64,000 nucleotides of DNA. Source: an uncultured Planctomycetota bacterium (GTDB lineage Bacteria; Planctomycetota; Phycisphaerae; Sedimentisphaerales; Anaerobacaceae). How positions within the stretch are numbered: position 1 is the first letter of the stretch; each line of letters starts with the position of its first letter. Positions 1 through 41,042 of this stretch are shown in pieces. Location of the stretch: positions 221,829 through 285,828 of the forward strand of contig CAWHAL010000004.1 in the NCBI GenBank assembly GCA_963827315.1, read 5' to 3'. Under the pieces are notes generated by a model, which saw only the letters and a list, made by a program, of their open reading frames with translations, did no database searches and was not told the origin of the DNA. The translations under genes were made by a program, and so were the position numbers.

Positions 1-1
1 G

Positions 2-400
2 GCCAATTACTCAAACCTCGTCCCGGCCGTTTCGGGCCTCTTGGCTGTTTTGGTTGTGCCCCTTCTTTTTTGTTTCAGGAAGACAATTGCTTATGGTTAT
101 GTTTTAAACGGATTTCTGGTTATTACAGGCACTATTACAATGGCCCATTTTTCAATTGCTCACTGGCCTAATCCGACGACGGTACAGGCGGTTCTTTTGA
201 ACACGACATTGGCTGATATACTGATTTTGTGGAGTAAATTTTTTGTTGGAAAGTCTCTCTTTGATTTGGAATTCTTCGGTTATGAAGCAGCCAGAGAGAA
301 AAAAGGCAAAACATTTCGTTATCCCAATATGGGATGGTGGTTTGTCCACTTGGCGGCAGTAAGCATTGTATATTATCTTGGCCATATTTTGTGGAGGTAG
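2..400 (+). CDS. hypothetical integral membrane protein, 5' partial (frame open to window edge)
   Basis: No stop in this frame from nt 2 to 400 (ORF track lists 41..400). Hydrophobic helices LLAVLVVPLLFCF, LNGFLVITGTITMAHF and WWFVHLAAVSIVYYLG. No family recognised. Confidence 0.35.
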   Translation, partial: ANYSNLVPAVSGLLAVLVVPLLFCFRKTIAYGYVLNGFLVITGTITMAHFSIAHWPNPTTVQAVLLNTTLADILILWSKFFVGKSLFDLEFFGYEAAREKKGKTFRYPNMGWWFVHLAAVSIVYYLGHILWR

Positions 401-538
401 ATATGAATCAGTTCAGGATGTTCACATTGAATTGGTGGATACTTCACATCTTGGCAATAATATTTTTCCTTTACCTTGGTCATGCGGTTCACTTTTGATT
501 TGCTTATTTTTTGCCGGGATAAAAGATACCTGGGATTC

Positions 539-1486
539 TTAGCGGACAAACCAGGAACCGATTCGCAACAGGAGTTTTTTGCCGAGGCCTTCAATTGCGT
601 AGGAAGTTGCTTTCATTGTCGCCTTTATTGCCTTGCGTACATCGCCGGCTGCTGAATTTGGGCCGATGATACTGTTCATAATATTGGCTGTTTCGTTGAT
701 TTCGTATTCGTAGCCTCTTACTATCGCAGCGGGAATGCCAGCATTTATCTGCCCAAACACAAGGGCTGAAGCAGCGGTTAACTCGTATGCTATGATGTCC
801 ATCCCGCCGAATTTAGGCTTGCCGAACAAATCCTTTTTGGCGAACATTTTCGCCCTCGGCTCAATGCCGGACGAACCGACCGCAAAATCCATTGTTCCAA
901 AAGGTATCATTTCGGTATCAGCCAGGATTACCGCCACCTGTCTGCCGCAGAGTCGTTGAATTTGTTCTCGTATTTCTTTCGCTGCTTTGTCCGGGTCTTC
1001 CGGCAAAAAGCTGACCACTCCCGGCGGATGGTTCGAGCCGTCTATCCCTGAATCGCTGGTATAAATTCGGCCGTCTTTGCCGAGGGTTATGCAGTTAGCT
1101 TGCTCGTGCTCGATAAGCTCTTTGCAGGCTTCCATATCTTCGGACGAATTCTTAATGTGCTGCTCGACAATTCCTTTGAGCGGCATAATCGCCAGTATCT
1201 TGTGACCTTTATCGAAAATCATTTGCAGCCATTTGGCGTCTTTTCCGGTTTTTCGCGATATCGACAGAGCTTTTTTCCCGGGCTTAACGTCGCTGAGTTT
1301 CTTTGTCAAGCCCGCCGCCTTTGATACAATCTTGCTGGTCAAAATGACAATGTCTTTTTCCTGCAGGCCTCCGATTTCACGGTCCGCACATTTGGTGATA
1401 ATCTCCGGCAGATTGTCTCCCTGCTTAATCTCCGGCACGCTCTGCAAACCTAATACTTCTATCTTTTTCATTGATATCCTGCCCAT
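539..1486 (-). CDS. cofE: F420-0:gamma-glutamyl ligase-like protein (CofE / FbiB N-domain family)
   Basis: 315-aa ORF. Motifs IVILTSKIVSKAAG, SGIDGSN, FLPEDPDKAAKEIR, AVILADTE and IPAAIVRGYEY match the CofE fold as I remember it. Confidence 0.7.
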   Translation of the reverse strand: MGRISMKKIEVLGLQSVPEIKQGDNLPEIITKCADREIGGLQEKDIVILTSKIVSKAAGLTKKLSDVKPGKKALSISRKTGKDAKWLQMIFDKGHKILAIMPLKGIVEQHIKNSSEDMEACKELIEHEQANCITLGKDGRIYTSDSGIDGSNHPPGVVSFLPEDPDKAAKEIREQIQRLCGRQVAVILADTEMIPFGTMDFAVGSSGIEPRAKMFAKKDLFGKPKFGGMDIIAYELTAASALVFGQINAGIPAAIVRGYEYEINETANIMNSIIGPNSAAGDVRKAIKATMKATSYAIEGLGKKLLLRIGSWFVR

Positions 1487-1508
1487 GCCGTTTGGCTACA
1501 CTTACCTG

Positions 1509-2240
1509 CTACGGCATGACATTGACGCGGTAGAGCGAACCACCCTTCATAGCGATATATTCCACTATTCCATCCTTCAAAAATATAGGCCCACACACAA
1601 TCCCGTCATACTCCGGCCCGGGCTGGCTGTCGACAACCACAAACCATTTGTTCACAAGCCATTTACTTCTCCGCGCCTCATACGCCACATGTTTGCCGTC
1701 GAGACTGAAGGTAATATCTCCAATCCCGTCATGTTCCGGCCCCGCCTGGCCGTCGACAACTACAAACCATTTGTTCACAAACCATTTATTCCTCCGTGCC
1801 CCATACGCCGCATGTTTGCCGTCGGGACTGAAGATAATACTTCCAATCCCGTCATGCTCCGGCCCCGCTTGGCTGTCGACAACCACGAACCATTTGTTTA
1901 CAAGCCATTTGCTTCTCCGCGCCCCATACGCCACATGTTTGCCGTCGAGACTAAAGGTAATATCTCCAATCCCATCATACTCCGGATCCGCTTGGCCGTC
2001 GATAACCACAATCCACTTCGCTCCGCGCTTCTCTGCCCAGGCAACACGACAGCCGTTAATAGTTTCTGACTTAGCAATATTAAAGCCTGAAGCAGGCACA
2101 CTACACAGATGCTGCTCCCGAATTTTTTCTATCTGGTTTGGCTCGGCATACACCGGCACAGCAGCGATGCCGAGCATCACAGCAATTAAAACCTGCGTCG
2201 GATTGATTGTGTTTTTTGTCATCATAATAAAACCCTCCAT
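1509..2240 (-). CDS. secreted repeat protein (PD40/TolB-like beta-propeller repeats)
   Basis: Signal peptide TQVLIAVMLGIAAVPVYAEP. Three full and some partial tandem 41-aa units (DGKHxAYGARRxKWxVNKWFVVVDxQxGPExDGIGxIxFSxDGKH), encoded by ~123-bp DNA repeats at about 1590-2010. Confidence 0.6.
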   Translation of the reverse strand: MEGFIMMTKNTINPTQVLIAVMLGIAAVPVYAEPNQIEKIREQHLCSVPASGFNIAKSETINGCRVAWAEKRGAKWIVVIDGQADPEYDGIGDITFSLDGKHVAYGARRSKWLVNKWFVVVDSQAGPEHDGIGSIIFSPDGKHAAYGARRNKWFVNKWFVVVDGQAGPEHDGIGDITFSLDGKHVAYEARRSKWLVNKWFVVVDSQPGPEYDGIVCGPIFLKDGIVEYIAMKGGSLYRVNVMP

Positions 2241-2317
2241 GCATCTTTTTCAAAATCTCTGGTGCCCGGCAAACGCTGAATGCATAATTAATAATAGTGT
2301 TTGACAACTCAATTTGT

Positions 2318-3411
2318 CTATCGTTTTTTTGAAAAGCCGGTAATTCTAACATCGTCGCCGAAACGCTTAACATCAACATAATGCAGACCGACTGTCTCGT
2401 TCAATTCAGCCATAGGCTGTGTTATATAGACGCTTCCCCGTGAGCCGAGTATTTTCGGGGCGATGTAAACGCAGACTTCATCGGCCAGACCCTGCTTCAA
2501 AAATGATGTTATAACCGTTGCTCCGCCTTCAACAAGTATTTGCTGAATATCTCTTTGGGCAAGTTTGGTAAGGACGGTTTTAAGGTTGCATTTGCCTTTA
2601 ACGGAGGGGACGGCGATAACTTCTGCTCCTTTTTTCTTCAGCAGTAGAATTTTTTTATTATTTCTATTTGTTGTGAATACAAGTGCCGGTGCTTTTTTTA
2701 CGGTTTTGATTAGATTGCAGTTTAGCGGGATTTTTAACTGGCTGTCGAGGACAACCCTGATAGGTTGATTGCCCGTATCAGGTCTTATGGTGAGTAGGGG
2801 GTTATCGGCAAGGACTGTATTTATGCCGACCAGGATTGCCTGTACCTTTCTTCGCAGTTTATGTGCATCTTTTCTGCTTTTTGAGTTGGTAATCCATCGT
2901 TTTTTGTCCTTTCGGGCAAGAAATCCATCTGTGCTCTGTGCCCATTTTATTATCACCCATGGTTTTTTTGTTTTGGCGAATTTGAAAAAAGGTGCGTTTA
3001 GATTTTGTGCTTCATTTTTGCAGATGCCAGTTACGATTTTTATACCTGCTTTTTTTAGGATTTTAAGACCTTTGCCGTTGACCTTTTTGGTTGGGTCTTT
3101 AGTTGCTGCCACGATTTTTTTTATGCCCGATTTTTTAATGGCGTCTGTGCATGGAGGGGTTTTGCCGTGGTGGCAGCAGGGTTCGAGCGTAACATACATT
3201 GTCGCGCCGTCGGCAGTTGCCCCTTTGCTCTTGCAATCCTGCAGTGCGTTTATTTCTGCGTGCGTGCCGCCGAATTTTCTGTGCCAGCCTTTACCGATGA
3301 TTTTATTGTTTTTTACTAAGACAGCTCCGACGGCAGGATTTGGTTCGACCTTTCCGATTCCTTTTTTGGCAAGAGCCAGGGCGATTTGCATGAATCTGGC
3401 ATCAGCACTCA

Positions 3412-35513: not shown

Positions 35514-36125
35514 CTATTTCAATTTCCAGTCGTCCGGGCAATAATCGAACCAGTGCTCGCCAAAAATACTGAAGTCCTTGAAATCGACATTCTCATCGCT
35601 GTACAAGTCCGCAAACTGCCCAGGACCGCTTTTGAGCCAGTCGTCAACAAAATTGGCCAGGTCATAAAAATTTACCTTGCATGCCTTAACATTGTAGCCA
35701 CACAGACTAACAGACTGGAAATTTATCCATCCGATATTCTCGCCCCAGGCCCAGCCGTCAAAGTTACCATTTGAATCGATGGTCACACCGCCATAGGAAG
35801 GGCTGAAATTTATCCAGCCGACATTTTCACCCCACGCGTAGCCGGAAAGGTTTCCTTGCCCATCGTTGAACACACCGCCGTAGTTTTCAGGCGACAGATT
35901 TATCCAGCCGAGGTTCTCCGCCCAGATAAAACCGGTCAATTTGTCACTGCTTACTGTTGCACCCGCATCTGGCCCTGCTGCATTTGGCTCAAAATTGAGC
36001 CAGCCGACGTTCTCACTATAGGCATATCGCGAACCGTCTTCATAAGGGTCGATGTTTTCGCCAAATACAGAAGCTGCGCTAAACACCCATAGAAAGAAAA
36101 CTACTTGTATTGTTTTACTGAACAT
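35514..36125 (-). CDS. secreted repeat protein (4x [YFW]-A-W-x-E-N-x-G-W-I-N-F units) with dockerin-like C-terminus
   Basis: Signal peptide. Repeats YAYSENVGWLNF, FIWAENLGWINL, YAWGENVGWINF and WAWGENIGWINF spaced 29-32 aa apart. C-terminal VNFYDLANFVDDWL and DENVDFKDFSIFGEHW. Confidence 0.6.
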   Translation of the reverse strand: MFSKTIQVVFFLWVFSAASVFGENIDPYEDGSRYAYSENVGWLNFEPNAAGPDAGATVSSDKLTGFIWAENLGWINLSPENYGGVFNDGQGNLSGYAWGENVGWINFSPSYGGVTIDSNGNFDGWAWGENIGWINFQSVSLCGYNVKACKVNFYDLANFVDDWLKSGPGQFADLYSDENVDFKDFSIFGEHWFDYCPDDWKLK

Positions 36126-36597
36126 TATAAAAATAACCTACTATCATCGCTCTTCTTGTCCCGGCGCTGCCATTTGCAATTCCCAATGAGTCACCTGCAT
36201 TGAGTACAACACATCTGTCCGGAAAATCCATAAAAGTCTTCCCATCCGGCGTACTATATGGCCCCCCTGTTAAGAAAGCACCGTTCTTTGTTAGATACAT
36301 AGCCGCATCGTGAAGAACCATCTTTAATAAGACGAATTGCTTGCCTGTCGGCACTGTAAAAAGTGTTATATTACTGTCTGACACCACTTCATTGTGGTCA
36401 ATAAGACCTTCCCTCTGGGATATACCCGATGAGCCGGCTGTCACAGCATCATATATCTCACTCAGCGTTTTCATAGTAGCCCCCGGAGGGGCGTTTGGCT
36501 CTAAGTTACCTGCCTTTACCAATAGAACGTAACCCAAAAGCCCGACCACCACGAGTAACGCCGCTGCCAAATGTGTGTCTGCTTTTTTCTGTTTCAT
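36115..36597 (-). CDS. hypothetical secreted/anchored protein
   Basis: AAAGGAGAAGG RBS. N-terminal TM/signal LAAALLVVVGLLGYVLL, then GNLEPNAPPGATMKTLSEIYDAV. Overlaps the downstream gene by 11 nt. Confidence 0.55.
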   Translation of the reverse strand: MKQKKADTHLAAALLVVVGLLGYVLLVKAGNLEPNAPPGATMKTLSEIYDAVTAGSSGISQREGLIDHNEVVSDSNITLFTVPTGKQFVLLKMVLHDAAMYLTKNGAFLTGGPYSTPDGKTFMDFPDRCVVLNAGDSLGIANGSAGTRRAMIVGYFYNVQ

Positions 36598-37131
36598 TTC
36601 CTTCTCCTTTAGAAAAAAGTTTTAACGTATTTATAGTGCACCTGTTGCGCACGAGTATCCTTGTAAAACTTATGGGAACTCAAAGAATTGAACGGCCTCT
36701 CTCCTGTTATCTCCATCCTCCTTTATCCCCGGCTGAACCTGTAAGACTGCAAGCGTTATATGTCCTTTTACCGGATAGTCAAGACCAAATTTACAAAAAA
36801 TATTGGCCGGGGTCATTGCGAGCAAACTTGTCCTGAGCGAAGTCGAAGGAGCGCGGCAATCTCGTTTAGCGTCCGCCGGCATGGCAGGTTTTTGTTTAGC
36901 GGTCGTCGGCACGACGACCTTATCTGAGGTTTTTATCTGGGACCCACTCAATTTGGCCAAGAACAGGGGACCCACCTCCCATTTAACCACTCCTCCGGGA
37001 TTGCTTTCCCCCCCAACGCCCGCCGTCTGGGCGTTTGTATTTAGCCCCGGCCTCCGGCCGAGGTTGCAAACGCCTGCCCTGTGGGATGCGCCGTATGCTA
37101 TCCCATCGGGGCGAGGAACGCTTAAATTTAC

Positions 37132-37159
37132 CCCCTCAATTTATTGAGGGGTTTCTTTA
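37132..37159 (+). terminator. terminator-like hairpin inside the 104-bp repeat (copy 1)
   Basis: CCCCTCAA-TTTA-TTGAGGGG followed by TTTCTTTA. No obvious upstream plus-strand gene. Confidence 0.3.
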
Positions 37160-37614
37160 CTGACGCCGGGGTGCAAACGCGAGGTCCGCTTATACCATTT
37201 CCGCGAAACGCGGCGTATTTAGCCTTGGGTTTTACCCTGGGTTGCAAACGTGAGGATTGCTTTCCCCTTCAACGCCCGCCGTTTGGGCGTTTGTATTTAG
37301 CCCCGGCCTCCGGCCGGGGTTGCCTGCGCGAGGTCCGCTTATACCATTTCCGCGAAACGCGGCGTATTTAGCCTTGGGTTTTACCCTGGGTTGCAAACGT
37401 GAGGATTACTTTCCCCTTCAACGCCCGCCGTCCGGGCGTTTGTATTTAGCCCCGGCCTCCGGCCGGGGTTGCCCACGCCTGCCCTGCTTGCCCCGTGAGA
37501 CGTGTCGTGTACTGTCTCACTGGGGTGAGACTTGCCCTGTGAGATGCGCAGTGTGCTATCTCATCAGGGTGCGCCGTATGCTATCCCATCGGGGCGAGGA
37601 ACGCTTAAATTTAC

Positions 37615-37642
37615 CCCCTCAATTTATTGAGGGGTTTCTTTA
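37615..37642 (+). terminator. terminator-like hairpin inside the 104-bp repeat (copy 2)
   Basis: Same sequence as copy 1. Lies about 170 nt upstream of the 693-aa gene. Confidence 0.3.
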
Positions 37643-37808
37643 CTGACGCCGGGGTGCAAACGCGAGGTCCGCTTGATATTCGTTTTCCTTCATATACCGC
37701 CGGTATAGAACGCAGAACGAGATTCCGGTTGCAAATGGACCCGTTTTGGGGATAGAATTCCAATGTGCGGGAATGAAGCACCGCGAAAAATAAATCGGAG
37801 ATTTTATT

Positions 37809-39890
37809 ATGGGCGTATGTGATGCGCATGACGCAGCTTGGGGATGCAAGAAAACGCTCGCAGAAGGTGAAGGTTTTGCGATCGCTGCTAGGTTCATGCA
37901 GGACTCGCCGATTCAGGAGAAACTTGTCGATAAATCCTTGGATGTATACAAGAGACTTGGCATGCCGTTGTCTAGGCAAAACTGTAAGCTTCAAATCGAG
38001 AGTATACAGGGTGCCACACTATGGTTAATCTGTGAGCAGTGCGCAAACCTGTTGAAGCTAAGCAGTGCCGACAAAGAGGCGGCGAGGGAAGCTGCCCGAA
38101 GATGGTGGAAGGACAAGAGTGCACCTGGTCATATGCCTGGACAAAAGACGACAGAAAGGAACAAAAAGCCAGCATATTTCATTATTTATGGAAATGGATT
38201 CACTCCATCAGCGATACAGGCGCATCTTATCCTGCGGTATTGGGTTGAAAAGGTAAAAGGCAAACTTGGCGAAGATATATGGGAACATATCAGGATGGAG
38301 CTGACAAGTAAAGAACACGGATCTAGGATGGTATTCACAGAGGTTTTCACTGAGGAGAAAAAGGTTCATCGGGGTCAGTTGGTAGATGGCCTGTTTCTAC
38401 TAGACTACAAAACAGGACAAGATATGGCACTTATTGCAGTGTGGGCGCCGGAAGATTCAGAGTATGTCGGCTCTTTATTGAAACCAAACCAAGCCGTGAA
38501 GCCGATGGCAATCGCCGAGGCCGAGATCGAGCAGATTCAGAAACAGGTTTGTGAAAAACCAAAAAACATTTACGAGATTCTCATGGACGCGATCTGCTGT
38601 GTCATGTGTGCTGATGGAAATGCGACGCCAAAGGAGCAAGAAGCGATTCATATCATTTTGGGTAAAACCAAAGCTTCTTGGACAAAAGAAGACATAGATA
38701 AGCGAATTGACGGCTTCCTGGAGCGAATCAAGATGGATGGTATGGACAAGATTGTTCAAGCGACCTGTGAGAATCTGCCCGAATTTAAGAGTAAAAAAAG
38801 ACGGGAGGTCTTGACGTTTTGTCTCGAATTTATTGCGCGTGCCGATGGAATAGTTGATGAAAAGGAAAAACAACTTATTGAAAAATTCAAGTCCGCTCTT
38901 GGAGTAGAGTCTGGCGATTCTGCCCCAAAGAGTGGGAGTCAGTCAAGCAAAGAAGAAAGGAAAACGGAAGAAGAAGAGCAAACAACTGTAAATTCCAGCC
39001 CATCAGATGATATCAATGCGAATAAATCTTCTGAACCGATTTTGCCTGATGGTAGTGTAGACGACCGTATCGATGGTTTATGGGACAGTGCTAAAAAGCT
39101 GGGTTGGTCGGAAACAGACTGCGAGAAAGAGATATCGATATATACAGAAATTCTCGGATTGGTTAATAAAAGTTCGAAATATAACGCATGTGCATCATTG
39201 CGCAATAGAGCAATTTCTTATAGGAATTTAAAGAAGTTCGACGAGGCTTTAAATGATCTTCAACATGAGTTGGAAATTGCTCAAAAAATCGGGGACCGAT
39301 ATCGCGTTATGGAATGCCAGAGAGTCATGAAAGAGACCAAACAAATGAAACAGGATGCTGAAATAAAAGCAAGCGGTGGTGAGAAGTCTTTAAAGGTCCA
39401 GTCCATGGAGCAACAGGCAAGTAAACTCTCTGACTCTGGTGCCGAGGGGGATGCAGCCTTTAAGAGTCTTTTCGAGGATTTAGCAAATAGCGATAGCGAT
39501 ATTCGTGCAAAGGCCTCGCAGCTATTGGCACACTCTTCCGAGGCTAGCAGCAAATTAATTAATGTGTATCAGGAGTCCCTTGTCGCAGATCCGCGAAAGA
39601 GTGTCCTTGCAGGGCGAGTGCTTGGTCGAAAACTTGACGGTGGAAGGCAAGACATGATTCCTGAACAAGTGACTATGCTGCTGTTCAGAGTCAAAATTGC
39701 ATTTACCCCGTGCGTTTGTGGACGCTGTGGCGAGCTGAATGTTGGTATCCCTGTACCTGAAAAAGGTTTGTATATTGGATTCTATGGCCAAACCGATGAC
39801 AAACATGGAGCATACGCTCTGCCTGTACTTTGTGATTACTGCGGCAAGGAATTCTTCATAGCGTGGGATAGTGACCCGCGAGGGCAATAA
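37809..39890 (+). CDS. hypothetical multidomain protein: TerB-like domain, acidic/Ser linker, TPR-like helices, C-terminal CxxC...CxxC zinc ribbon
   Basis: 693-aa ORF with GGAG 7 nt upstream of the ATG. ILMDAICCVMCADGNATPKEQEAIHIIL ... FIARADGIVDEKEKQLIEKF looks like a TerB-type fold. NRAISYRNLKKFDEALNDLQHELEIAQKIGD is TPR-like. CVCGRCGE...CDYCGKEF is a zinc ribbon. Confidence 0.6.
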   Translation: MGVCDAHDAAWGCKKTLAEGEGFAIAARFMQDSPIQEKLVDKSLDVYKRLGMPLSRQNCKLQIESIQGATLWLICEQCANLLKLSSADKEAAREAARRWWKDKSAPGHMPGQKTTERNKKPAYFIIYGNGFTPSAIQAHLILRYWVEKVKGKLGEDIWEHIRMELTSKEHGSRMVFTEVFTEEKKVHRGQLVDGLFLLDYKTGQDMALIAVWAPEDSEYVGSLLKPNQAVKPMAIAEAEIEQIQKQVCEKPKNIYEILMDAICCVMCADGNATPKEQEAIHIILGKTKASWTKEDIDKRIDGFLERIKMDGMDKIVQATCENLPEFKSKKRREVLTFCLEFIARADGIVDEKEKQLIEKFKSALGVESGDSAPKSGSQSSKEERKTEEEEQTTVNSSPSDDINANKSSEPILPDGSVDDRIDGLWDSAKKLGWSETDCEKEISIYTEILGLVNKSSKYNACASLRNRAISYRNLKKFDEALNDLQHELEIAQKIGDRYRVMECQRVMKETKQMKQDAEIKASGGEKSLKVQSMEQQASKLSDSGAEGDAAFKSLFEDLANSDSDIRAKASQLLAHSSEASSKLINVYQESLVADPRKSVLAGRVLGRKLDGGRQDMIPEQVTMLLFRVKIAFTPCVCGRCGELNVGIPVPEKGLYIGFYGQTDDKHGAYALPVLCDYCGKEFFIAWDSDPRGQ

Positions 39891-41007: not shown

Positions 41008-41042
41008 CCCCGTGAGATGTGTCGTTTACTATCTAACTGGGG
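41008..41042. repeat. dispersed copy of the CCCCGTGAGAY hairpin family
   Basis: CCCCGTGAGAT-GTGTCGTTTACT-ATCTAACTGGGG. Same architecture as 37077-37111, 37491-37525 and 37535-37569. Confidence 0.75.

Follow-up and report, generated by a model that had tools for sequence, protein, structure and literature searches.

The 64,000-nt stretch analyzed here (the window), from contig CAWHAL010000004.1 of an uncultured Planctomycetota bacterium (GenBank assembly GCA_963827315.1), contains between two divergently oriented genes a spacer crowded with GC-rich hairpins, some of them arranged in perfect duplications. What is this array? A first-pass annotation, made from the letters alone, likened it to the bacterial interspersed mosaic elements (BIMEs) of Escherichia coli, which are built from repetitive extragenic palindromic (REP) units, and also considered duplicated small-RNA genes or a transcriptional insulator. 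Systems that pair REP elements with REP-associated tyrosine transposases (RAYTs) have been studied almost entirely in Gammaproteobacteria. We conclude that the array is very probably a BIME-like cluster of REP-type elements from a REP–RAYT system of the Sedimentisphaerales. Its units are dispersed, extragenic and structurally conserved, they flank RAYT-like genes, and they co-vary with that gene family. The cluster consists of TTAG-footed REP elements and is a recognizable, unusually flavored example of known REP DNA; the locus is ordinary, and the system is moderately interesting. For this locus, that means repeat DNA rather than a gene or a dedicated regulator.

The spacer measures 1211 nt, in line with the earlier estimate of about 1.2 kb, and separates a minus-strand open reading frame (ORF; 36115-36597) from a plus-strand ORF (37809-39890) encoding a 693-aa TerB/TPR protein. 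The array spans ~0.8 kb of it, with order and copy number taken as assembled on a 698-kb contig of a 6-contig genome of 2.26 Mb. (Below, G000 denotes this source genome, C1-C6 its contigs, G0xx relatives, and L0xx loci elsewhere.) All tagged units of the array lie on the minus strand, where they follow a simple grammar: a hairpin and then CTAA(A/C)(T/C) or (G)TAAA(T/C), which on the plus strand becomes a 5' foot of TTAG, or of TTTA(C/G) in the classes that we call H3 and AT-loop. The outer stem (CCCC/GGGG) is fixed and the inner stem is freely variable. The four hairpins and both linkers named in the first-pass annotation are all present in the sequence, and the linker GTATTTAG with its hairpin, when reverse-complemented, becomes a GC hairpin that has CTAAATAC behind it; GTATTTAG is the conserved hairpin foot seen from the opposite strand rather than a neutral linker. 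Folded as single-stranded DNA (ssDNA), the array has a z score of -3.9 against dinucleotide shuffles, with 0 of 20 shuffles folding equally well.

The first-pass annotation had proposed counting its modules A, B and C across the genome and searching for RAYT- or IS200-like genes. BLAST against the 2.26-Mb genome finds diverged copies of the modules at ~18 other loci, so they are not unique to this spacer. An unbiased listing of 475 GC-rich perfect hairpins has CTAAAT (19), CTAACC (16) and GCTAAA (12) as its most frequent 6-mer tails, with TTTTTT following 7 hairpins. A pattern holding only the anchors, CCCC-N7-18-GGGGCTAA, matches 60 times, compared with 0-7 times for permuted control tails. 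All four unconstrained inner stem positions pair in 41 of these 60 copies, where 3.5 would be expected with shuffled partners, and 32 different inner stems occur among them; structure is conserved while sequence drifts. Because the background of a relaxed hairpin-plus-tail census with one mismatch was too high (118 matches against 44-87 for controls), we relied on the strict and anchor-only tests. A hairpin followed by CTAA(A/C)(T/C) is found 60-80 times in the genome, nearly always in intergenic DNA. Of 77 strict units, just 9 are inside ORFs of at least 150 aa, though such ORFs cover ~85% of the genome, and units are commoner in convergent spacers and rarer in divergent ones (4/56). They share a direction throughout 14 of 15 genomic clusters, and at C4:502360-502516 five different classes follow one another head-to-tail. 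The orientation of units was also compared with GC skew and replichore; the skew follows local gene orientation, with no clean replichore signal. Among the individual classes, H3-type hairpins number ~25 in the genome (29 matches versus 4 for the control), the class GTCCGCCGTGCCGGCGGAC-GCTAAAC has ~14 occurrences, and the hairpin that we call Y is found at 11 loci, nearly always next to the hairpin called X.

The same genome encodes a family of candidate partner enzymes. A search with Pfam Y1_Tnp (PF01797) returned eight ORFs, all outside the window and 151-187 aa long; 7-8 genes is the count given here. C6a is frameshifted and lies on a contig that repeats the end of C4. The earlier remark that no RAYT or transposase is nearby therefore holds for the 64-kb window and fails for the genome. 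When the eight paralogues were compared with the window by tblastn, only chance-level matches appeared, with no RAYT remnant beside the array. The proteins have in common the motif GYMxTWTTYGTWLQG, an H-V-H motif and a C-terminal D/A-Y-V-x-K/R-H, and H85, H87 and Y143 are invariant across 41 homologues. An AlphaFold (AF2) model with a pLDDT of 82.8 retrieves from the PDB, by Foldseek, only Y1 HUH transposases: IS200 (2f4f, E 6e-6), TnpA-REP (4er8, E 1.6e-5, TM score 0.57, lowest root-mean-square deviation), ISDra2 and IS608. For the three proteins tested, the best NCBIfam family is REP_Tyr_transpos (NF047646), with the IS200 model scoring lower. There are 1129 database homologues, of which many carry the JGI label 'REP element-mobilizing transposase RayT', and the NCBI sources are metagenome-assembled genomes (MAGs) of Sedimentisphaerales/Planctomycetota. 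The paralogues are 27-51% identical to one another, apart from the pair C4a/C2c at 81%. Judged from these features, they are RAYT-like and predicted to act as Y1 transposases. As for the duplicated contig end, C6 (29.5 kb) near-duplicates at positions 1-3400 the C4 end at 693,300-696,500, REP array included, and its frameshifted RAYT copy (C6:1542-2075) corresponds to C4:694764-695237; the cause may be a mixture of strains in the bin, or the duplication may be real.

Tagged hairpins flank every one of the paralogues. Copies of AACCCCCAAG-N6-CTTGGGGGCTAAATG stand on both sides of C2a, and copies of GGTCGCCGTGCCGGCGACCGCTAAAC on both sides of C2b. Directly before the start codons of C2c and C4a lies the string hairpin X - CTAAATAC - GCCGCTGGCGAGGCCAGCGG, and the arrangement of hairpin X and CTAAATAC seen in the first A module of the array likewise recurs directly upstream of C2c. 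The 450 nt upstream of C4a hold three composites of ~124 nt (H3 - hairpin X - CTAAATAC - hairpin Y), less than 100% identical to one another, homologous to the window array and in the same orientation. Three H3 copies are present upstream of C4a and at least five upstream of C4b. The cluster in the window thus mixes hairpin classes that adjoin at least three paralogues: the CCCCGGCC type is found with C2c, the CCCAGGG type with C4a and the GGTCGCCG type with C2b, and the H3 type is abundant by both C4a and C4b. Two further observations concern the surroundings of such genes. A 600-nt array directly downstream of RAYT C1a (C1:118,480-119,080) consists of ~12 hairpins of the CCCCCACC/GGTGGGGG type, in which complete (CTAACC/CTAATC-tagged) and truncated copies alternate between AT-rich flanks (GTTAATTA). 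Short runs of CGTATGT/CGTATCT-like heptamers (for example, CGTATGTCGTATATCGTATGTCGT) occur in three genomes, both within REP arrays and directly ahead of RAYT genes (C4:695,240-695,330; L014; L035 660-720).

The association extends to other genomes. Of 31 relatives, 22 have RAYT homologues, and the number per genome reaches 15 (in G016). At eleven loci in ten other genomes, which represent ten genera, the sense strand has a hairpin followed by GCTAAAT 10-70 nt upstream of the gene, and at seven of the eleven an inverted unit (ATTTAGCC-hairpin and then a T-rich run) stands 3' of the gene; these seven loci have the classical REP-RAYT-REP layout. The unit 3' of the RAYT genes of G020 and G015 (L013, L014), TTTAGCCCCCCAATTTATTGGGGGGTTCTTTTTACTGATG, is homologous to the presumed terminator of module C, with the T-rich flank present too. 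Across the 31 genomes, counts of the anchor motif correlate with counts of the RAYT family (Spearman 0.77, p 3e-7; medians 25 versus 0), in a statistic that ignores the phylogeny of these genomes, and a reversed-pattern control yields 0-7 matches and no correlation. Relatives with only other Y1 transposases have 0-2 motifs. Where orthologous spacers were compared within the genus, their flanks are 83-96% identical while the repeats between them have turned over: in one case it is fully replaced, in another the source genome has an extra unit, and in a third the unit is kept in place with a different inner stem.

More distant relatives of the array itself were sought with a 16-mer scan of 596 Gb of genome contigs. 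As ~280 chance matches were expected, the single matches that made up most of the result were treated as chance, and only the multi-match loci L035 and L049 were kept. L035, in a Phycisphaerae MAG, has the same mosaic of H3, hairpin X, CTAAATAC and hairpin Y, at 87% identity over 119 nt to 37005-37123, and this mosaic is itself duplicated, 286 nt apart. L049 (2540-3120; CAZWMN010000017.1, in a MAG labelled Pirellulales) consists of at least three tandem repeats of ~247 nt, each reading hairpin X - CTAAATAC - GCCGTCGGCAGGGCCGACGG - TTTGGGTGCAGAATACAATATG, a RAYT 5' leader with its start codon but no gene behind it. For the locus as such the comparisons were negative: 12 relatives lack the 693-aa gene, which leaves no basis for showing conservation specific to this locus; the contig of the same-genus genome G002 ends 60 nt after rpoD; an exact-protein look-up of both flanking genes gave no match; and a metagenome scan with the unique right flank found no second assembly of the locus.

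Direct comparison shows how the array is put together (Table 1). The order A-H3-C-B-A-B-A-H3-H3-C given in the first-pass annotation is correct, and the two copies each of C and B are indeed free of mismatches, the exact blocks being one nucleotide longer (105 and 81 nt); module A occurs three times (from 36998, 37254 and 37403) at 86-95% identity. The start does not lie at 36999, however: two additional tagged hairpins at 36864-36919, of the class GGTCGTCG-TGC-CGACGACC + GCTAAAC, move the left edge to ~36864. A and B prove to be variants of a single ~75-nt module, and blocks B and C overlap in a 14-nt junction, CGCGAGGTCCGCTT, which occurs three times (37178, 37327, 37661). The recurring frame reads AAGCNNNCCTCNCG - (T/C)(T/A)(T/G)GCAA - hairpin X - CTAAATAC - hairpin Y - ~9 nt - next frame, with TTTGCAA as one form of its second element, and is repeated head-to-tail. 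Within it, hairpin X is either CCCCGGCC-GGA-GGCCGGGG (three times) or the decayed CCCAGGG-TAAAA-CCCAAGG (twice), of which a relative with a perfect stem, CCCTGGGTGAAACCCAGGG-CTAAATAC, exists at C4:413403 and C1:649334. Hairpin Y is AAACGCCC-N-GGGCGTT or GCCGCG-TTT-CGCGG. Module C contains the AT-loop hairpin CCCCTCAA-TAAA-TTGAGGGG + GTAAAT (on the plus strand, CCCCTCAATTTATTGAGGGG-TTTCTTT) and long H3 hairpins of the form CCCCGATGGGAT-N11-ATCCCACGGGG. The H3 stem arms at 37491-37594 vary in a compensatory way: GGGAT/ATCCC, GAGAT/ATCTC and GAGAC/GTCTC. Four ORFs of 75-129 aa that an ORF finder places through the array (36670-36990, 36803-37147, 37144-37371 and 37257-37646) are likely spurious.

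Table 1. Repeat features of the spacer, in window coordinates (HPx and HPy, hairpins X and Y; HPx' and HPy', their forms in block B)
Feature	Position	Strand	Remark
Degenerate class-II REP unit, CCTGCCATGCCGGCGGAC + GCTAAAC	36864-36888	-	Regex map
Class-II REP unit, GGTCGTCGTGCCGACGACC + GCTAAAC	36894-36919	-	Same type as the hairpins either side of RAYT C2b
Module A1: HPx (CCTCGGCCGGAGGCCGGGG) + tag CTAAATAC + HPy (AAACGCCCAGACGGCGGGCGTT)	37015-37063	-	
H3-type long hairpin, CCCCGATGGGAT-N11-ATCCCACAGGG	37077-37111	-	One of the ~25 genomic copies
Identical block C, copy 1, 105 nt	37087-37191		Direct comparison
AT-loop REP unit, CCCCTCAATAAATTGAGGGG + GTAAAT	37126-37151	-	Plus strand: hairpin + TTTCTTT, the 'terminator' of the first-pass annotation
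Identical block B, copy 1, 81 nt	37178-37258		Direct comparison
HPy' GCCGCGTTTCGCGG, within B copy 1	37201-37214		
Decayed HPx' CCCAGGGTAAAACCCAAGG + CTAAATAC, within B copy 1	37215-37241		
Module A2: HPy + HPx (CCCCGGCCGGAGGCCGGGG) + CTAAATAC	37271-37319	-	
Identical block B, copy 2	37327-37407		
Module A3: HPy + HPx + CTAAATAC	37420-37468	-	
Two complete H3-type hairpins	37491-37525 and 37535-37569	-	
Half H3, opening block C copy 2	37570-37594	-	
Identical block C, copy 2	37570-37674		AT-loop REP 37609-37634; terminal 14-nt junction motif 37661-37674

Several smaller features lie in or near the spacer. At 36800-36860 (core 36833-36849, plus strand) there is a copy of a different dispersed family with the core CTGAGCGAAGTCGAAGG, which has 41 genomic copies at up to two mismatches, sits within a ATTGCGAGC...GCGGCAAT inverted repeat, and is near class-II REP units in the few loci inspected. 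Just left of the H3 and A modules, at 36935-36990, a GGGACCCA-containing motif pair, TCTGGGACCCA...GGGGACCCACC, probably represents another small repeat family; an element like it, GGGACCC...CTGGGACCCAG, takes up an unrelated spacer of a same-genus genome (L141, G001:C38, ~1900-1960). A lone H3-type hairpin (minus strand, CCCCAGTTAGATAGTAAACGACACATCTCACGGGG + TAAAC) is found at 41008-41042, in a 1.4-kb ORF-poor stretch (40.3-41.7 kb). Two other kinds of repeat array were considered for the spacer and rejected: it has no CRISPR-like regularity of repeats with unique spacers, and no R''/R' core sites of integron attC elements.

The perfect duplications suggest how the array grew. The two B copies are 100% identical, down to a decayed hairpin that both contain. 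The 149-nt copies in which they lie differ at seven positions, every one of them outside B, for which we calculate a probability of ~0.005 if differences were evenly spread. Because of this shared decay, this distribution of differences and the meeting of the blocks at the junction motif, recent local duplication fits B and C best and is their most likely origin. By analogy with TnpA-REP and with IS200/IS605 TnpA (PMC3333891, PMC3479197, PMC6006769), the RAYT enzymes would recognize a hairpin and its foot on ssDNA, then cut and rejoin units and so seed intergenic DNA, preferably beside resident units. Local segmental duplication, recombination or conversion would subsequently enlarge the array at the 14-nt junctions and hairpins that its units share, the perfect copies of B and C being recent local events on top of older seeding by transposition. 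Effects on neighboring genes, such as termination on the plus strand, would be secondary.

A more specific model, which we regard as doubtful, takes the ~75-nt frame as a shared landing pad, where several RAYT paralogues insert their cognate hairpin behind a resident CTAA tag. The tag would then be both cleavage site and target, a part of the model that we hold just as tentatively. The model would account for three observations: the co-oriented runs that mix classes, the apparent nesting of hairpins in a constant frame (hairpin Y after CTAAATAC, H3 after CCTCG) and the accumulation of multi-class arrays in a single spacer. Precise insertion targeted to the tail would predict a fixed offset between the CTAA tag of one unit and the next hairpin, and there is none, the gaps ranging from 4 to 178 nt without a peak. 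If true, the model would amount to multi-enzyme, tail-targeted propagation of REPs, which is undescribed for GTAG REPs.

Does the array instead serve its neighbors? Its modules could be cis-regulatory or RNA elements selected at this locus, either terminators or an insulator for the 693-aa gene or duplicated small-RNA genes, with the likeness to REPs incidental or secondary. In its favor, five terminator-like sites (hairpin plus T-rich run) are on the plus strand and none on the minus strand (2.4 +/- 1.6 expected); a promoter-like site follows just downstream of the array (37729-37758), and E. coli REPs are reported to influence termination and mRNA decay (PMC3733652, bioRxiv 10.64898/2026.03.23.713779). 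Yet there is no upstream plus-strand gene to terminate, since rpoD is followed by two minus-strand ORFs; the same units recur at dozens of unrelated spacers; an Rfam scan of 36000-38500 at E <= 1 has no match, nor did a search for tRNA and tmRNA genes find any; and conservation at this locus cannot be invoked for a gene missing from those 12 relatives. The 'textbook terminator' that the first-pass annotation saw at the end of module C is itself a REP unit, homologous, T-rich flank included, to the REPs next to RAYT genes in other genera. What survives of that claim is a side effect: a polar terminator action on plus-strand transcription would be possible on sequence grounds. Selection as regulatory or RNA elements we consider quite improbable. 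Somewhat different is the proposal that the units are derivatives, resembling miniature inverted-repeat transposable elements (MITEs), of an active IS200/IS605-type insertion sequence (palindrome-associated transposable elements, PATEs), and that the small genes are ordinary transposases of such elements. The fold and the weak profile matches are common to IS200/IS605 TnpA, C2a and C2b have the same hairpin and tag in direct orientation on both sides, like left-end and right-end hairpins on one strand, and there are several paralogues per genome, up to the 15 already mentioned. The hallmark of such an element, several near-identical copies of transposase and ends, is nevertheless missing: with identities so low, the C4-end/C6 duplicate is the sole near-identical pair. 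Each paralogue has its own hairpin type, same-genus orthologues have related flanks (L020 resembles C1b, and L010 resembles C4a/C2c), the REP-transposase model outscores the IS200 model, and the ORFs listed around the genes include none that resembles a TnpB partner. We therefore judge this origin very unlikely. Least probable of all is that the perfect duplications (B twice, C twice, the 149-nt period) are an assembly artefact, with genuine units in a mis-expanded or mis-joined array. Perfect repeats of 81-105 nt are hard for short reads, the G002 contig breaks off 60 nt after rpoD, and similar arrays contain gaps at other MAG loci (L010, L049; the Ns may be masking). Against this stand the length of the contig and the small number of contigs, the tendency of assemblers to collapse rather than expand repeats, the placement of the copies in non-identical A modules with distinct junctions, and independent examples of internally duplicated mosaics in L035 and, as three imperfect ~124-nt copies, upstream of C4a.

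Other observations weigh against assigning the array to a REP–RAYT system. The proteins score 26-50 bits against NF047646, below its cut-off of 80, and seven of the eight paralogues lack Y---NP, the class-2 RAYT signature, having D/A-Y-V-x-K/R-H in its place; Y-I-Q-A-N-P is found only in the divergent C2b. Two relatives depart from the correlation, in which phylogeny is in any case disregarded: G023 (95% complete) has 42 CTAA-tagged motifs and G018 has 9, with no detectable Y1 transposase gene in either. Their motifs may be orphan REP populations that outlived a lost RAYT; alternatively, the gene may be in a part of the genome missing from the assembly. The copy number is modest, ~60-110 depending on the definition used; the general scarcity of REP units in divergent spacers makes the location of the array atypical; and the Y hairpins (AACGCC...GGCGTT, CCGCGTTTCGCGG) have no tag of their own and may be passengers of the composite. 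Finally, the published REP tags GT[AG]G, CGTC and CnGA (PMC3733652, PMC6006769) are not present, and the units are co-oriented instead of alternating or forming inverted doublets.

Comparison with established systems locates these departures. Like the REP/BIME elements and TnpA-REP of E. coli and Pseudomonas (PMC2817692, PMC3333891, PMC3479197), the units are short, GC-rich extragenic hairpins with a foot tag, both dispersed and clustered into mosaics with recurring linkers; small HUH/Y1 genes are flanked by cognate hairpins, as in a REPtron, and several REP classes and RAYTs coexist in one genome. The E. coli likeness noted earlier is thus borne out by the dispersal of the units, their place beside RAYT genes and their abundance, which tracks those genes, and it breaks down in two respects: the conserved foot is TTAG or TTTA(G/C) where theirs is GT[AG]G, and clustered units are co-oriented where theirs alternate. 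There are also 7-8 paralogues in place of 1-3, with Y-V-x-K/R-H in place of Y---NP, although the HUH motif and tyrosine on a Y1 fold, the low copy number and the low identity of the genes are as in RAYTs. The GTAG- and CGTC-tagged REP superfamilies (Di Nocera et al. 2013, PMC3733652) include tandemly reiterated clusters and head-tail dimers and, like the units here, have a tetranucleotide tag at one end of a stem-loop; the present tag fits neither consensus, and the outer stem is fixed while the inner stem is free. The class 3 TnpA-Y1 proteins of Planctomycetes and Acidobacteria (Quentin et al. 2018, PMC6006769) resemble ours in their planctomycete host, their REPtron-like genes, several per genome, their atypical multi-copy flanking hairpins and an extended N-terminal conserved region (here, GYMxTWTTYGTWLQG). 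By the published descriptors that class has Y----Q and a CnGA foot, in contrast to Y-x-x-x-H and TTAG here, and no Q is found at +4 or +5 of Y143. REPINs (Bertels & Rainey 2011, PMC3116915) are hairpin repeats that, like the units here, are non-autonomous, are linked to a RAYT and are lost or missing in its absence. They differ in being inverted REP pairs that form one long hairpin; here the units stand singly or in head-to-tail runs, and the array contains no inverted pairs.

The system offers a compact natural experiment: a single small genome holds many diverged RAYT paralogues, each next to a hairpin class with its own inner stem, and all of these classes have the TTAG foot in common. How a RAYT reads stem and foot becomes testable by swapping stems among the paralogues. 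Annotation pipelines keyed to GTAG feet will miss these repeats.

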